From the IMG/VR virus record IMGVR_UViG_3300021387_001774, positions 64,001-128,000 of that record: DNA of 64,000 bases; one strand, given 5' to 3'. This document shows, piece after piece, positions 8,830 through 62,963 of this stretch. Position 1 is the stretch's first letter; the number at the start of each line of letters is the position of its first letter. The notes beneath the pieces were generated by a model. The model was not told the origin of the DNA, made no database searches, and was given only the letters and a program-made list of their open reading frames with translations. A program made the translations under genes and the position numbers. Origin of the DNA: a virus (lineage: Duplodnaviria > Caudoviricetes).

Positions 8830-9021
8830 ATGAAAAAAATATTTATAAAATTTCTAATTTCTTTTAGACATTTATTCTTTAAAAGAGTTAGATGTTCAGA
8901 TTATGAAATGTATATAATCAATTATGATAAGAATAAAAAAGAATTCTTTAATCAAATTGATGATACATTAAACAAATTAGAAAAATCTCATAATGGTTCA
9001 TCAAATATAATAATTTGGTAA
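8830..9021 (+). CDS. Small hypothetical protein
   Basis: Downstream of the late promoter; N-terminus MKKIFIKFLISF resembles that of the next ORF. Confidence 0.5.
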   Translation: MKKIFIKFLISFRHLFFKRVRCSDYEMYIINYDKNKKEFFNQIDDTLNKLEKSHNGSSNIIIW

Positions 9022-9056
9022 TTTGTTATGTGATTAAAATATTTTAAAGGAGTTAA

Positions 9057-9401
9057 ATGATGAAAAAACTTTTTACTTTCCTTGCTTCTATTTTTACTAA
9101 TCTTTTTTCTAAAAAAGATGACAAGACGATTAAAATCGTAAATGTTATCAAAGAAGATAAAAAGGAAGATGTAAAAGTAGAATCTAAAGAAGAAACACCT
9201 AAAAAGGTTTCTATCGAAAAAATCGTCGATAGTCTTGATAAAATTCAGGATTCAAACGACGATCTTTTTACTAACATTGGTCTTTTGGTAGCTGAGATAG
9301 ATGATGTTTATAAGGCACCATCTAAAGAAGATAGAGAAAAACAAAAGGCTGAATGTTATCGTACATTGGATTATATCAAAGATCAATTGACAAAGATGTA
9401 A
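9057..9401 (+). CDS. Hypothetical protein with amphipathic N-terminal helix
   Basis: AAGGAG RBS; followed by a terminator at 9408-9435. Confidence 0.75.
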   Translation: MMKKLFTFLASIFTNLFSKKDDKTIKIVNVIKEDKKEDVKVESKEETPKKVSIEKIVDSLDKIQDSNDDLFTNIGLLVAEIDDVYKAPSKEDREKQKAECYRTLDYIKDQLTKM

Positions 9402-9407
9402 TTTAAT

Positions 9408-9435
9408 TAAAGGTAGGACTCTTGTCCTACCTTTA
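9408..9435. terminator. Intrinsic terminator (aaaggtagga/tcctaccttt family)
   Basis: Perfect stem; the same stem recurs at 62421-62449. Confidence 0.75.
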
Positions 9436-9437
9436 TA

Positions 9438-9603
9438 TTTATAACTACTGTTTAACTCAACTATTTAATTATATATTATATTAATGAAGTAACCTGTATA
9501 GGTGAAACATAATAATTATAAGAGGGATAATAAGAGAAATAAAACCCCACCTCAGTGAAGAGGTCTACTGATAAAAAGGGATACAAACACAAGGGAAGAA
9601 ACT
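9438..9603 (+). repeat. Family-1 promoter plus structured 5' leader, copy A
   Basis: ~165 bp nearly identical to 25991-26152; contains TACTGTT, TATATTAT (9472-9479), two hairpins and the aaacacaagggaagaa RBS. Confidence 0.9.
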
Positions 9604-9987
9604 ATGGGAAAGTTTAACGATTTTATGCAGAAGTGTGACGACCTCAGAGTAAAAGAAAACAAAGAAAGAGAGCTTGAGAGGGCTCTCGAGAGATCAAAAG
9701 ATATATCCCGTTTAAAGGATATTTTTGATCCAAGTTATTGGGCGGATATGAGATGGGGATCATTTGACCTCATCCATATTCGCTGCAATACGGCGGAAAT
9801 GGTGAACGATTTCGAAAGAATCGTTGAAAAATTAACTGGCAGGAAAATCATGACAACGGAGCTCTGCAATGTATTTAAAAATACGTGTGGAGATCGTACA
9901 TTGTCAGTAGAGATCAAAACATCTTGTCGAGACATCGATAAGATTTTTGAAAGCATTTTGGAGTTTATCGATTTATATAAACTCTAA
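9604..9987 (+). CDS. Hypothetical cargo protein of cassette A
   Basis: ATG immediately after the conserved leader; GC higher than flanks. Confidence 0.8.
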   Translation: MGKFNDFMQKCDDLRVKENKERELERALERSKDISRLKDIFDPSYWADMRWGSFDLIHIRCNTAEMVNDFERIVEKLTGRKIMTTELCNVFKNTCGDRTLSVEIKTSCRDIDKIFESILEFIDLYKL

Positions 9988-10001
9988 TTAACACCCGCAA
10001 A

Positions 10002-10056
10002 ACAGAAAAACTCGAAAAGGTTTTTCTGTACCAGCTCTCCTCTGGTTTCTTTTTTT
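10002..10056 (+). terminator. Family-1 double-hairpin 3' trailer/terminator, copy A
   Basis: acagaaaaac/gtttttctgt, then accag/ctggt, then a T-tract; homologous to 26465-26519. Confidence 0.8.
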
Positions 10057-10098
10057 GTTTTTAATAAAATAGCAGGATTAATATCCTGCTATTTTTTT

Positions 10099-11457
10099 TT
10101 AAACCGTTTCTTCAGGTCTTTTAATTATATTAAAATCTTTAACTTCATCACCATCTTTATAAGCAGTACCTTTAAGATACTTACCATTATCACACAATTT
10201 CCACCAAGCTTTATTCTCGACAGAATACAATGTAATAAGATCGATAATTACTTGTTGACGAAGACGAATGAAGTGAGTCTTAATATTCTTAATTTTTAAA
10301 ATCATTTTAGTAATTGTATCATAATTCGAAATTTTTGATTTAGCTTCAGGTGTCTCTTGATCCAAATATTTATTAATTTCTGCAATAATTGTTTTACTCA
10401 TTTCAGTAATTAGTTTATGATCTTTTTTAGCTAATTCTTTATATTCTTTAAGAGTAGTTTCAAGTTTTTCTATATAACCACCTTTACCAACAACTTTCTG
10501 AGACATTTCGTAATATTCTTGGAAATATTGGTCGAGTTTGGCATAATTCAAATTATTTCCACTTCCTGTACTACCTTTAAAATAATTATGAATTAACATT
10601 TTTTCTCTAACTACTGCCGGACTTCCAAATACAATCATATGTGCAATTTCATCAACTTTTCCATTTCTTACAATATCGTCTAGAGTAAGTTGACTACCAA
10701 CCATATACAATGTAATTCCTGCTCCAGCTCGAGCTCCATCTGCTGGTCCAGCTTCATTAACAAGAATACCTGATGCATAAAGATTATCTACAGCATTTTT
10801 AAGTATACCTAATTTTCTAGTTTCATCATCTATAACTTTTGGATTAGATGGATTTAGCTTTGTAGCTTCATCGATTACAGTTTTAAAATACTCCAAACTA
10901 GCAGCAGAAGTTCTACTACTTTTAATTTTCAAACTACAGAATTTTTCAATATTGGGTCTAGTTAAAAGTCTATAAATAAGACTGTGATCATACTCTATAT
11001 TTCCAATATTAAGAGTTTGAATAGATTCTCCACCAGTAATCATATTTAATAAAATGTTACTATGAGTATTATTGAATCCTTTAAGACCACCATCTTTTTC
11101 AAACATCTTAAAGATAGAATTCATTTGAACTCTTTTCTTTTGTATGAAAATAATAACAGTCTTAATAAGAGAAACAACAAGTTCTATAATTTTAGAGAAA
11201 ATACTTACAAGGAAAGTCCAAATTTTTAAAAAGAATTCTTTAATTTTTGTTCCAAAAGTCTTTTTATCTTCTACCTTCTCATCTTCAGTAGATCTCATTC
11301 TATATGATTTTTTGAGAAAAGCTACATTTTCATAAAAGTTTTCTCTAGTCTGTTCCAATTTTTTAGAAGTAGTTGTAATACTACTAAAGCATTCCAAACT
11401 ATCATTCAAAAATTCTTCAAATGATAGATGTACATATTCTGTATTTGAAGCAACCAT
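10099..11457 (-). CDS. Putative internal head (ejection) protein
   Basis: S-T-E followed by the amphipathic KIKEFFLKIWTFLVSIFSKII helix typical of phiKZ-like internal head proteins; in a late operon. Confidence 0.6.
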   Translation of the reverse strand: MVASNTEYVHLSFEEFLNDSLECFSSITTTSKKLEQTRENFYENVAFLKKSYRMRSTEDEKVEDKKTFGTKIKEFFLKIWTFLVSIFSKIIELVVSLIKTVIIFIQKKRVQMNSIFKMFEKDGGLKGFNNTHSNILLNMITGGESIQTLNIGNIEYDHSLIYRLLTRPNIEKFCSLKIKSSRTSAASLEYFKTVIDEATKLNPSNPKVIDDETRKLGILKNAVDNLYASGILVNEAGPADGARAGAGITLYMVGSQLTLDDIVRNGKVDEIAHMIVFGSPAVVREKMLIHNYFKGSTGSGNNLNYAKLDQYFQEYYEMSQKVVGKGGYIEKLETTLKEYKELAKKDHKLITEMSKTIIAEINKYLDQETPEAKSKISNYDTITKMILKIKNIKTHFIRLRQQVIIDLITLYSVENKAWWKLCDNGKYLKGTAYKDGDEVKDFNIIKRPEETV

Positions 11458-18136: not shown

Positions 18137-18637
18137 ATGAAAATGACTAAAGAAGAAAGAAAAGAACGTAAGAGAAAATATGATAAGAAATATTATGAAT
18201 CTCATAAAGATGAAAAGAAGAAATTTTATAAGGAACATAAAGATGAACTTAACGAAAAAAGTAAGATGTATTATGAGACTCATAAAGATGAAAGGAAAAA
18301 GTATTATGAGACTCATAAAGACGAGTATAATGAAAGATCTAAAAAGTATAAAGAGATCCATAAAGAAGAAAAGAGAGAATATTCAAAGAAGTATTATGAA
18401 TCTCATAAAAATGAAATAAAAGAAAGATCTAAAAAATATAATAAGATCCATAACGAAGAAAGAAAAGAGTATTATAAGAAGTATTATGAAACTCATAAAG
18501 AAGAAAGGAAGAAATATCGTGAGGCTCATAAAGAAGCAAGAAAAAAGCATAATAAAAAGTATTATGAAACGCATAAAGATGAGCTTAAAGAAAAAAGGAA
18601 GAAGTATCGTGAGGCTCATAAAAAAGAAACAGTTTAA
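18137..18637 (+). CDS. K/E/Y/H-rich repeat protein (KKYYETHKEE repeats)
   Basis: 11- and 15-aa repeats; paralog of 62454-62963. Confidence 0.8.
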   Translation: MKMTKEERKERKRKYDKKYYESHKDEKKKFYKEHKDELNEKSKMYYETHKDERKKYYETHKDEYNERSKKYKEIHKEEKREYSKKYYESHKNEIKERSKKYNKIHNEERKEYYKKYYETHKEERKKYREAHKEARKKHNKKYYETHKDELKEKRKKYREAHKKETV

Positions 18638-25990: not shown

Positions 25991-26152
25991 TTTATAACTA
26001 CTGTTAAACCTGACCTCTTAATTATATATTATATTAATGAAGTAGGTCGTATGACTGAAACATAATAATTATAAGAGGGATAATAAGAGAAATAAAACCC
26101 CACCTCAGAGAAGAGGTCTACCGAAAGGAGATATAAACACAAGGGAAGAACT
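25991..26152 (+). repeat. Family-1 promoter plus structured 5' leader, copy B
   Basis: Near-identical to 9438-9603, with compensatory changes in the first hairpin. Confidence 0.9.
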
Positions 26153-26452
26153 ATGGAAAAAACATATTCGATAATGCCGAATGGTATTAAAATACAGGAT
26201 GACCTGTTACCCATGTTATCATGGAGCAGGTGCTCCGGTGATGCCGGTTATAACGGCAGGTCATGGGACGGTTCAGAATCATGGACCGTCCTGGTTGAAG
26301 CACAATGCGGTGAAAACCGCATTGTAGCTTTGGGATATGAATCCCGAGATCCTGATGGAAATTGGGATGTCGGCGTATATCCCGACCACGGCATCTTCGT
26401 AGGTGAAGATGCCTACGAAGATGCCTGTGCTTGCTGGAGGTTCGATTGGTAA
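26153..26452 (+). CDS. Hypothetical acidic, Trp/Cys-rich cargo protein of cassette B
   Basis: ATG immediately after the conserved leader; GC visibly much higher than the genome background. Confidence 0.8.
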   Translation: MEKTYSIMPNGIKIQDDLLPMLSWSRCSGDAGYNGRSWDGSESWTVLVEAQCGENRIVALGYESRDPDGNWDVGVYPDHGIFVGEDAYEDACACWRFDW

Positions 26453-26464
26453 GCATAGGTTAAA

Positions 26465-26519
26465 ACAGTAAAACTCCATAAGGAGTTTTCTGTACCGGAT
26501 TGCTACGGTTTCTTTTTTT
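26465..26519 (+). terminator. Family-1 double-hairpin 3' trailer/terminator, copy B
   Basis: acagtaaaactcc/ggagttttctgt, then accg/cggt, then a T-tract. Confidence 0.8.
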
Positions 26520-26614
26520 AATTATATATTATATTAATGAAGTACGTTATACTTATTATTAATATTAATTGAAGTAGAGATGATACTACTATAAACATAA
26601 GGGAGAAAAGAAAT
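26518..26614 (+). repeat. Family-2 promoter plus structured 5' leader, copy 2
   Basis: Shares gaagtagagatgatactactataaacataagg with the 18047 copy. Confidence 0.9.
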
Positions 26615-27439
26615 ATGAGCAACGTTTGTGACTGTTGTAAAAAAGGAAAACCTTGGATTACAATTAAAGAATACCAAGGAGAATGTAGAGGTTCTACAGA
26701 AGTACATTTATGTAGCGATTGCTATAAAAATACTCCACAAATAGAATCAGAAAAGTATAATGATCCTGAAATGAATTATCCTAGAGATGATTCAATTTAT
26801 TCTTGTGATTATGAAAAATGGAGGTCAAGTATGATTATTCTCACATCGATTAAACGTTTACGTGGTGAAAAACCAAACAGACGTAAACCAACTACTAAAC
26901 CAAACTATAGAGAGTTTGAAGTTTTCCTTGACAAAATTGTATCCTATGCTATACAGAGTTTGAATCATTTTAGAACAAATGATTATCTCGAAGATCTAGG
27001 TTTTGGTAGATATAGATATTCGACAAAATTTCAATATGTATATACCGCTTATAATAAAAAGCCTGGAGAAAAAATTCACAGTTTAACATACCGCAATTTG
27101 TTTGCAGCATTGTATGAATCATTAGAAGGCTACGAAACTGAATATAAATTTCTTGAGTATGATAAAGATGATCCATTTAGTGATGCACGTTATTCTTCTG
27201 GTAATCGACTTGAAGAAATTGTTAAGACTATCGAAACCATTTATAAAGATTTACGAGACAAAGAATTGATTGATCCAATATTTGTATTAAATAAAAGATT
27301 TGGATTAAAAAATATTTGCTCTAATATTTTGAATAAATACGGTTTTTACAATATCGGTATAGTTAAACATGAAGACTTAACAATGGATATAATCTTCTAT
27401 TGTAAGTACGATGAACTCAAAAAAGTTTGGGAAAAGTAA
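26615..27439 (+). CDS. Hypothetical early protein with N-terminal Zn ribbon
   Basis: CDCC...HLCSDC at the N-terminus. Confidence 0.75.
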   Translation: MSNVCDCCKKGKPWITIKEYQGECRGSTEVHLCSDCYKNTPQIESEKYNDPEMNYPRDDSIYSCDYEKWRSSMIILTSIKRLRGEKPNRRKPTTKPNYREFEVFLDKIVSYAIQSLNHFRTNDYLEDLGFGRYRYSTKFQYVYTAYNKKPGEKIHSLTYRNLFAALYESLEGYETEYKFLEYDKDDPFSDARYSSGNRLEEIVKTIETIYKDLRDKELIDPIFVLNKRFGLKNICSNILNKYGFYNIGIVKHEDLTMDIIFYCKYDELKKVWEK

Positions 27440-27441
27440 AA

Positions 27442-27476
27442 TCCTGGGAGTCATATGACTCCCAGGTTTATTTTTT
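27442..27476. terminator. Bidirectional terminator (cctgggag/ctcccagg family)
   Basis: Same stem at 51833-51871 and 61879-61905. Confidence 0.8.
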
Positions 27477-43912: not shown

Positions 43913-44242
43913 CTAACAATTTGTATCTGGCTGGTTATGGTCATAATAGTTCTCAACAGAGGTCTTTACCCTCTGTCTTACCAAGTAACGCTTCTTGGCT
44001 GGCGGGAGACTCTGGACATCTCCATTTTCAGATCCCTCGGGTCCATTATTCACGAACCCAAAGAATCTGGAGGATAAGTGCTCATAATCTTCATTCACCC
44101 GGTACTTACCGAATGTGGTGAAGATTATGCTTGATTTTTCCGTATACTTACGGAAACCTTGAATTTGATCCTCCCTTATCCTCATAGGGAGGCTTTCTTT
44201 TTCATCGTCCAGATCGATGAAAACCTGAAAAAATTTTGCCAT
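43913..44242 (-). CDS. Hypothetical early protein
   Basis: AAGGAG RBS; TATATTAT at 44309-44316 with upstream TACTGTT; elevated GC. Confidence 0.75.
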   Translation of the reverse strand: MAKFFQVFIDLDDEKESLPMRIREDQIQGFRKYTEKSSIIFTTFGKYRVNEDYEHLSSRFFGFVNNGPEGSENGDVQSLPPAKKRYLVRQRVKTSVENYYDHNQPDTNC

Positions 44243-44382
44243 AATTGACTCCTTTTCAATATGGTCAAATATCGGATATGAAACCTATTTTCATTCCTTT
44301 ACCTTAATATAATATATAAATGAAGCTTTTAATTGAACAGTAAAAAAAGAAAGGACTTTGGTCCTTTCTTTTAGTAAGTAAA

Positions 44383-61870: not shown

Positions 61871-61878
61871 AAAAATAA

Positions 61879-61905
61879 TCCTGGGAGTTTAATACTCCCA
61901 GGTTT
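61879..61905. terminator. Bidirectional terminator (cctgggag family)
   Basis: Stem cctgggagt/actcccagg. Confidence 0.75.
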
Positions 61906-61917
61906 AAATTTCAAAAC

Positions 61918-62453: not shown

Positions 62454-62963
62454 TCAACAATTAGAAGAAGATCTTTTAATCGTGCTTCTTTTCCAATAAT
62501 CGTCTAATTCTATTTGATCTTCTTCAGTCCATGTCATACCTGATAAAGCTATAGCTTCATCTTCTAGTATAGTTCCTTTACCTAACTTAGTCATAATAGA
62601 TCGCTTTAAAGAATCATCCCCTAGTTTCAGTATAGTAAGATAATTCTCAATAGAAGAAAAATATCGAAAATACTTTTTTCTATAAAACTTAGAAACACGT
62701 TCACCTAATATACAGAAATCATAATTCTTTCCACGATATTTTCTAAGTTTTTCAAGAAGTATTTCCCTATTCTTTTCGCGATATTTTTTACATCTTTTAG
62801 CGATTTTATCGTGATTCTCTTTATGAGCCTCACGATATTTCTTCAAATACTCGCTCATTTCTTCTTTATGAGCCTCACGATATTTCTTCAAATACTCGCT
62901 CATTTCTTCTTTATGAGCCTCACGATATTTCTTCAAATACTCTTTTCTTTCTTCTTTAGTCAT
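62454..62963 (-). CDS. K/E/Y/H-repeat protein with unique C-terminal domain
   Basis: Exact 45-bp tandem repeats (KKYREAHKEEMSEYL) at ~62819-62942; same MTKEERKE start as 18137-18637. Confidence 0.8.
   Translation of the reverse strand: MTKEERKEYLKKYREAHKEEMSEYLKKYREAHKEEMSEYLKKYREAHKENHDKIAKRCKKYREKNREILLEKLRKYRGKNYDFCILGERVSKFYRKKYFRYFSSIENYLTILKLGDDSLKRSIMTKLGKGTILEDEAIALSGMTWTEEDQIELDDYWKRSTIKRSSSNC

Follow-up and report, generated by a model that had tools for sequence, protein, structure and literature searches.

Why should a phage place nearly the same DNA on both sides of genes that have nothing in common? The question is raised by the interval 9438-10056 in a 64,000-nucleotide stretch of viral DNA (the window; bases 64001-128000 of the 263,686-bp virus record IMGVR_UViG_3300021387_001774, here called the genome, 29.5% GC). 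This interval, cassette A, consists of a promoter, a leader, one small open reading frame (ORF; the cargo) and a trailer, and its flanks recur around a different ORF at 25991-26519 (cassette B). A sequence-only reading of this DNA had proposed gene shuffling, with the flanks as recombination arms. Our comparison with related phages supports this proposal, since the breakpoints coincide with the promoter and the trailer. Three findings that would have spoken against it, namely no more than two copies, homologous cargos, or a fixed cargo at each orthologous locus, were looked for, and none was obtained. We consider it likely that the cassettes undergo modular shuffling via homologous recombination at shared regulatory sequences, in the manner of the promoter-early stem-loop (PeSL) elements.

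The source is an uncultured rumen jumbo phage, and the genome is 94% complete. Jumbo myovirus genes were matched for the tail sheath, a virion structural protein, the large terminase and a DnaB-like helicase; homologues of the beta and beta' subunits of a multisubunit RNA polymerase (RNAP) are encoded as well. The relatives used for comparison are metagenome contigs (L-numbered below) and two more distant genomes, G001 and G004 (276 kb). In the close relatives that served for locus comparison, the flanks have 87-96% nucleotide identity. Synteny in G001 and G004 is too rearranged for orthologous sites to be defined, and neither genome contains any of the cargos A-D (C and D are introduced below). 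BLASTN of cassettes A and B against GenBank phages returned no match, and zero matches were found when IMG/VR was searched for the exact leader pattern.

Cassette Copies and Their Cargo Genes

The features of the two cassettes in the window are as follows.

9438-10056, plus strand: cassette A
9444-9456, plus strand: upstream element ACTACTGTTTAAC (consensus CTGTT(C/A)AA), about -42 to -30 from the presumed start
9468-9485, plus strand: promoter core ATTATATATTATATTAAT, presumed start at G9486
9492-9503, plus strand: 5' hairpin hp1 (ACCT-GTAT-AGGT), directly after the presumed start
9524-9547, plus strand: helix P1 (GGG/CCC) closing the invariant loop UAAGAGAAAUAAA
9549-9564, plus strand: hairpin P2 (ACCUC-AGUGAA-GAGGU), followed by invariant CUAC at 9565-9568
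9565-9603, plus strand: 3' leader box with CUAC, P3, invariant GGGAUA (9578-9583), an A-rich stretch and the ribosome-binding site AAGGGAAG (9591-9598)
9604-9987, plus strand: cargo A, a 127-aa ORFan
10002-10029, plus strand: trailer hairpin T1, with an invariant base (ACAG.AAAA/UUUUCUGU) and a variable apex
10030-10056, plus strand: trailer hairpin T2 (ACCAG-loop-CUGGU) and U-run, an intrinsic-terminator-like cassette end
25991-26519, plus strand: cassette B
25997-26038, plus strand: cassette B upstream element (25997-26009) and promoter core (26021-26038)
26039-26152, plus strand: cassette B leader, with hp1 (26045-26056), P1 (26077-26100), P2 (26102-26117), CUAC (26118-26121) and ribosome-binding site (26141-26148)
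26153-26452, plus strand: cargo B, a 99-aa ORFan rich in Cys and Trp
26465-26519, plus strand: cassette B trailer, with T1 (26465-26493), T2 (26494-26509) and U-run (26510-26519), abutting the next promoter

The near-identity of 9438-9603 to a second copy, which the sequence-only reading had pointed out, was confirmed by BLAST (87%, E 1.7e-51) and reaches the ATG codons at 9604 and 26153; without gaps, 9438-9571 matches 25991-26124 at 88%. Homology resumes shortly after the stop codons, as had been described, with the trailers starting 14 nt (A, at 10002) and 12 nt (B, at 26465) downstream. The cargos between these flanks are indeed unrelated, since BLASTP gave no match between the 127-aa and the 99-aa products, and both exceed the genome in GC content (37% for A and 48% for B vs 29.5%).

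The two copies in the window are part of a larger set. The genome contains four full type-1 cassettes that have a common promoter, a leader of about 115 nt and a two-hairpin trailer; cassettes C and D occupy genome positions 246030-246661 and 257430-258199. A diverged but homologous leader (type 1b) precedes three more genes, at genome positions 219109, 230303 and 246664, and the relatives hold many further trailer-bearing cassettes. No two of cargos A-D are related to each other, and none has a paralogue in the genome.

Alternative States at Orthologous Loci

The fate of these loci in the close relatives carries most of the argument: an orthologous locus may keep its cargo, have a homologue of 31% identity or an unrelated gene instead, or be empty. 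At locus A, cargo A is present at 78-80% amino acid identity in L113 and L117 and as a 31%-identical homologue in L121; in L030 its place is taken by an unrelated 62-aa gene that lacks the trailer and ends at the hairpin equivalent to 10066-10095. The neighbours of locus A are 79-97% identical throughout. At locus B, the cargo is kept (72% amino acid identity) in L009 and L096, and in the same two contigs the cassette that follows B has, in place of its 274-aa ORF, an unrelated gene of about 130 aa between the same leader and terminator, in flanks of 92-96% identity.

Exchange between loci is also apparent. Locus C holds a homologue of cargo B in L109 and a member of another family in L104. 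Locus D keeps cargo D in L124, and in L090 it has the leader and cargo found in this genome at 230303; locus 230303, in turn, is occupied in L107 by a new cargo of 78 aa behind a type-1 leader. Relatives also have cassettes at two sites where this genome has none. Site 239236/239313 contains a 195-aa cassette in L088, and in L122 and L123 a cargo-D homologue with a leader 98% identical to the 246664 leader of this genome; site 239935/239938 contains two cassettes in L097. As read from these alignments, the comparison of relatives shows four outcomes, namely cargo replacement, re-pairing of leaders with cargos, gain and loss of whole units and, as described in the next section, homogenisation of leaders.

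Breakpoints and Concerted Evolution

Left breakpoints lie at the promoter core and right breakpoints at the first bases of the trailer. An alternative breakpoint, the GATA..CACAAGG leader box, is found in L122 and L123: the 3' end of their leader is of type 1, which, in a leader otherwise of the 246664 type, places the crossover in the GAUA..CACAAGG box.

Leaders resemble each other more within a genome than they do between orthologous loci. Leaders A-D are 87-97% identical to each other, and the two leaders on contig 3300021431_002513 are 90% identical; at the orthologous loci of these two genomes, however, leader identity is 79-81% and that of the surrounding DNA 92-96%. Moreover, the types of 5' hairpin, P1, P2 and 3' box assort independently among cassettes, in a mosaic fashion. 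The likeness within genomes and the mosaic assortment require repeated recombination between cassette copies, and the sequences thus indicate concerted evolution of the leaders. Neither a tyrosine integrase (PF00589) nor a serine resolvase (PF00239) is present in the 94%-complete genome, which, together with the positions of the breakpoints, argues for general homologous recombination and against an integron-like mechanism.

Leader RNA

Sixteen distinct leaders, taken from this genome and from relatives, were aligned and have a constant order of elements: a variable 5' hairpin, an A-rich stretch, P1 with its loop, P2, CUAC, P3, G(G/A)GAUA and the ribosome-binding site. The 3-bp P1 closes an invariant 13-nt loop, UA(A/G)GAGAAAU(A/G)AA; P2 is a 5-bp hairpin, and P3 is a small helix with a GAAA loop. 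The leader core is kept by compensating changes. All three P1 pairs covary (GGG/CCC, GUC/GAC, CCG/CGG, GUG/CAC and GCG/CGC), P2 has at least six stem versions with both sides changed at four of its five pairs, and the versions of the hp1 stem preserve pairing (ACCT/AGGT, GTC/GAC and AAGGATT/AATCCTT). In the named structure, 88.7% of cells are paired, 37 cells have changes on both sides, and the covariation score was reached by none of 500 shuffles; slid controls were 29-59% paired. RNAalifold independently predicts the same helices. The leader had been called structured in the sequence-only reading, and the covarying helices bear this out; it should be noted that the claim rests on covariation because the folding energy is unremarkable.

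Searched with a covariance model of this alignment, the genome yielded seven copies (123.8 bits for the cassette B leader) and G001 one, whereas G004 and two unrelated contigs had none. For the four cassette loci, neither leader nor trailer has a match in Rfam 15 at E values up to 1. A search of the genome for a trans antisense partner of the leader yielded only chance AT-rich 11-13-mers and the opposite strands of the leaders themselves.

In type 1b, the loop reads AGGAGAAAUGAAAGGG, that is, a ribosome-binding site and AUG (genome 219178, 230352 and 246729). This AUG opens a frame of 7-12 codons (MKG...); type 1 has AUA instead. A leader peptide was rejected as a general feature, being confined to type 1b and, judged by eye, unconserved beyond three residues; pairing between the 5' leader and the 3' trailer was also rejected as unconserved by eye.

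Trailer

Both trailers in the window consist of a 10-12 bp hairpin, directly followed by a 4-5 bp hairpin and a U-run. The trailer fold has an energy of -16.2 kcal/mol in A (z -3.1) and -19.0 kcal/mol in B (z -4.7), and T2 with the U-run scores as an intrinsic terminator. In an alignment of 22 distinct trailers, the blocks AACAG, TTTTCTGTACC and GGTTTCTTTTT are invariant, and compensating changes occur at the T1 apex and at T2 stem positions 4-5. The trailer of A is the most diverged of the four type-1 copies; these three blocks are all that it has in common with the others, and its stem differences are compensating. The structure of two hairpins is conserved as such, and its function is predicted to be that of a terminator.

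The trailer is more widespread than the leader: three copies are present in G001 and two in G004, and it was found in 29 metagenome DNA stretches. It accompanies several types of leader and no fewer than a dozen families of cargo. It is kept between genomes that align over only about 28-34% of their length at about 70% identity. This conservation across distant genomes points to a sequence-specific function and to recent exchange.

Promoter

The promoter core ATTATATATTATATTAAT occurs in 47 copies in the genome (at most two mismatches), preceding small to mid-sized non-structural ORFs; no core motif was found before the sheath, capsid-region and terminase genes. More than half of the copies (26/47) directly follow a terminator T-run, for example at 26510-26538; 12, those of A-D included, have the upstream element CTGTT(C/A)AA, and nine fall in neither group. 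The mean GC content at third codon positions (GC3) is 0.35 behind copies with the upstream element vs 0.24 behind the other copies. Most promoters in the genome are followed by a 5' hairpin.

A sigma-70 reading of the promoter and upstream element was rejected: the interval 9000-10400 contains 7 such sites vs 6.5 expected, and the site at the cassette A promoter scores 9/12, the actual motif being a long AT-rich block. According to a review (Sokolova et al. 2020, PMC7598289), every RNAP-encoding jumbo phage has, upstream of its early operons, a highly conserved AT-rich motif that is centred near -10 and is about 10 nt or more in length; it was found bioinformatically, and the virion polymerase reads it. 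Given this pattern, the AT-rich motif and the RNAP homologues of this phage, it is reasonable to regard the promoter as probably an early one, of the type used by a virion RNAP.

Two observations on the promoter stand apart from the cassettes of this genome. One copy, at genome 217432-217530, is directly followed by a tRNA-like sequence rather than an ORF. In relatives (the first bases of L099, L113:3850-3862, L121:2360-2372 and upstream of the cassette in L090), variable homopolymers, C9-C13 or G9, lie between the CTGTTCAA upstream element and the promoter core, the equivalent here being C6 at cassette D. Such tracts could affect promoter spacing or could be hot spots of slippage or recombination.

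Composition and Distribution of the Cargo Genes

Cargos A and B have a GC3 of 0.41 and 0.46, the 5th and 3rd highest values among the 206 ORFs (mean 0.20, sd 0.07); over all cassette cargos GC3 ranges from 0.39 to 0.46. High-expression codon bias was ruled out as the source of this richness. The cargo codons are generically GC-rich (CTG, GTG, GCC, GCG, GGC, AGG and ACG), whereas sheath and capsid-region genes favour a different set (TTC, AAG, CAG, CGT, GGT and GCT); thus, the composition of the cargos looks foreign rather than expression-driven.

Among 5.8 billion proteins, homologues of the cargos were found only in related phage contigs. Those of cargo A are at the same locus, and an exhaustive profile search with it added only two relatives to its own family cluster, of which one lies at locus A in a related phage; cargo B has only four relatives. 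Searches of Pfam and PHROGs with the four cargos gave only sub-threshold noise. The AlphaFold model of cargo A was poor (pLDDT 54) and was not used for a fold search; with the model of cargo B (pLDDT 67), Foldseek found nothing below E 0.1 in the PDB. Elsewhere in the window, on the minus strand, the 109-aa ORF at 43913-44320 has the highest GC3 of the genome (0.48); its promoter belongs to the CTGTTCAA upstream-element class, its leader is short and of a different kind, and it probably represents one more foreign-looking cassette.

Surroundings of the Cassettes in the Window

9408-9435, plus strand: terminator-like hairpin (12-bp stem) of the preceding plus-strand gene (9057-9401), the left edge of cassette A
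10066-10095: two-way terminator hairpin, the right edge of the island, common to the convergent gene 10099-11457 (minus strand)
26521-27475, plus strand: neighbouring cassette of the leader-2 type, with promoter (26521-26538), 274-aa ORF (26615-27439) and terminator (27441-27475)

Cassettes A and B lie on short plus-strand islands between minus-strand blocks, at operon boundaries. The sequence-only reading held that they interrupt late virion-gene regions. This needs qualifying, since no operons are split; B is a neighbour of the tail sheath gene and of the genes for a virion structural protein and a 2406-aa protein.

The 452-aa gene next to A (10099-11457, minus strand) has 56% identity in L030 and 79% in L117 and L121, and the gene beyond it (531 aa, phosphoesterase-like) is 91-94% identical; the 452-aa gene is thus locally hypervariable. 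Leader-2, a hairpin followed by GAAGTAGAGATGATACTACTATAAACATAAGGAAGAAA, precedes about nine paralogous genes in the genome, the proteins of which are built of 11-aa or 15-aa repeats (KKYYE(T/S)HK-like; for example, at 18137-18637 and 62454-62963 in the window). At the DNA level, these repeats are 33-nt and 45-nt tandem repeats (families D1, D3, D7 and D8). A second standardised terminator, CCTGGGAG-loop-CTCCCAGG with a T-run, is found in the window at 27441-27475, 51833-51867 and 61877-61911.

A Model of Cassette Shuffling and Its Alternatives

The model that we favour, shuffling by homologous recombination, can be described as follows. Cassette A and its six relatives in the genome would be self-contained transcription units, the regulatory ends of which double as homology arms. 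At the start of infection, the AT-rich, phage-specific promoter would be read by a multisubunit RNAP packaged in the virion; the 5' hairpin probably stabilises the mRNA, and the leader most likely drives or controls translation of the following ORF, a small accessory gene that is succeeded by the conserved two-hairpin terminator. Since promoter, leader boxes and trailer recur in the genome and in co-infecting relatives, recombination between them would replace cargos, re-pair leaders with cargos, insert or delete whole units and homogenise leader copies. The expected outcome is a pool of interchangeable accessory genes that are expressed automatically.

Several points weigh against this model. 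We infer that the promoter is active, that it acts early, where transcription starts and where it ends. The leader fold is no more stable than its shuffles (z 0.5 and -0.2), and its structure relies on only ten covarying pairs. Of 12 breaks in colinearity in a rough automatic count, only 6 had the promoter motif at a distance of 60 nt or less, compared to 14.5% of random 120-nt windows that contain the motif; this count is crude and no more than suggestive. A donor of the GC-rich cargos was not found, the homologues of A, B and D all being in related phages. Finally, the relatives are metagenome contigs, in which repeats of 55-165 nt could yield chimeric assemblies, and the arrangements in L090, L104, L107 and L109 were each seen in one contig.

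The last point leads to the explanation that the swaps are artefacts, produced when assembly joined unlike sequences at the repeated promoter, leader and trailer. The repeats (25-165 nt) are indeed in the range that confuses short-read assemblers, and several key contigs are single observations. However, arrangements recur across independent samples and assemblers (L122 and L123; L009 and L096; four contigs for P0002), L089, L090 and L102 have upstream sequence in common, each swap would need two chimeric joins, and the graded divergence of the cargo at one locus (100, 80, 78 and 31%) is no assembly effect; we regard this explanation as the least probable of all. Plain duplication, by which a regulatory region was copied a few times and ORFs were gained later in rare illegitimate events, with no ongoing exchange, would fit the 87-97% identity of the four type-1 copies, as expected after recent duplication. 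It is nevertheless improbable, as it accounts neither for leaders that are more alike within genomes than between orthologous loci, nor for mosaic combinations of hairpin, P1, P2 and 3' box types, nor for several alternative states per locus among close relatives. An integron-like system would treat the trailer hairpins as attC-like sites cut by a dedicated recombinase, with cutting expected within TTCTGTACC. It would fit the imperfect double hairpin with its invariant core TTTTCTGTACC and variable apex, which persists in relatives with as little as about 68% identity between genes. The absence of PF00589 and PF00239 proteins, a separate promoter for each cassette, left breakpoints at the promoter or inside the leader instead of at a second hairpin site, and the L030 cargo that lacks a trailer all speak against this mechanism, which we regard as very improbable.

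More serious is the possibility, in our view still well short of even, that the leader is chiefly a cis-regulatory RNA, either a site bound by a factor of phage or host or a ligand sensor, that defines a set of co-regulated early genes, that it is conserved for this role and that shuffling is a by-product. The invariant 13-nt loop, CUAC and GGAUA are set between covarying helices, this core is kept in type-1 and type-1b leaders that differ elsewhere, and the structure exceeds the needs of a ribosome-binding site. Conversely, the fold is weakly stable, Rfam gave no match at E values up to 1, the genome search yielded no trans antisense partner, and G004 has the trailer without such a leader. 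The regulatory-RNA reading is compatible with the shuffling model, to which it adds a layer. We tentatively suggest, as a minority view of our own data, that the leader core (P1-P3, the UAAGAGAAAUAAA loop, CUAC and GGAUA) might be a new class of cis-RNA, bound by a factor of phage or host, and the trailer core, UUUUCUGUACC...GGUUUC, a sequence-specific stop or processing signal for the phage polymerase. If so, leader and trailer would be standard parts, and a recombined ORF would join the early programme with a set dose, timing and shut-off.

Relation to Known Systems

The PeSL elements are known from the T4-like phages RB49/phi1, PST and nt-1 (Arbiol 2010, PMC2839356; Comeau 2014, PMC4122927). 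They are composite terminator-promoter motifs, about 50 per genome, located before ORFans; they bound insertions, deletions and replacements, and homologous recombination that brings its own expression signals has been proposed for them (PMC2839356, PMC4122927). The analogy drawn in the sequence-only reading is valid for behaviour: the genome analyzed here has 47 promoter cores, 26 of them directly after a terminator T-run, and motif-bounded insertions, deletions and replacements occur in L030, L088, L090, L097, L104, L107, L109 and L122. Unlike PeSL, the promoter is not sigma-70-like and resembles the AT-rich early motif of jumbo phages, and the phage itself is not T4-like; thus, the cassettes are not PeSL by membership. 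They also differ in having an additional second flank (the two-hairpin trailer) and a leader of about 115 nt with a covarying three-helix core, and in the independent re-assortment of leader and cargo.

A moron of a lambdoid or other temperate phage is a single accessory gene of deviant composition, with its own promoter and terminator, located between conserved genes. Morons of lambdoid and other temperate phages were reportedly described by Juhala et al. in 2000. The cassettes resemble them in the succession of promoter, single ORF and terminator between conserved genes and in GC3 (0.39-0.46 vs 0.20). Classical morons, however, have individual, unrelated signals of host type and are often expressed in the prophage state. 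The cassettes carry a repeated set of standard, phage-specific signals, and the lack of an integrase suggests that the phage is lytic. Integron cassettes are likewise small, exchangeable and unrelated ORFs, each with an imperfect attC hairpin; they are promoterless, depend on a common Pc promoter and are moved by IntI. The likeness to them lies in small unrelated exchangeable ORFs that end in a conserved imperfect hairpin, whereas an IntI-type recombinase is absent here, each cassette has its own promoter, and breakpoints are also in the promoter and leader. With the early promoters of phiKZ- and AR9-type jumbo phages, the promoter shares a conserved AT-rich motif in a genome with RNAP beta and beta' homologues; it differs in that the motif is lineage-specific and that the extra CTGTT(C/A)AA element marks a subclass.

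Implications

Most of what is documented about modular shuffling at regulatory repeats comes from T4-like phages, which use promoters of the host sigma-70 type. The same strategy probably operates here in an unrelated lineage of rumen jumbo phages that encode RNAP. Its standard parts additionally include the structured leader and a conserved terminator motif, which is less variable than the surrounding genes. This provides a concrete account of how small early ORFans, likely genes of host takeover or counter-defence, may be gained and exchanged. The leader and trailer are new conserved RNA/DNA motifs that can be used to find pools of accessory genes in metagenomes, and both are candidate portable expression parts for the hosts of these phages.

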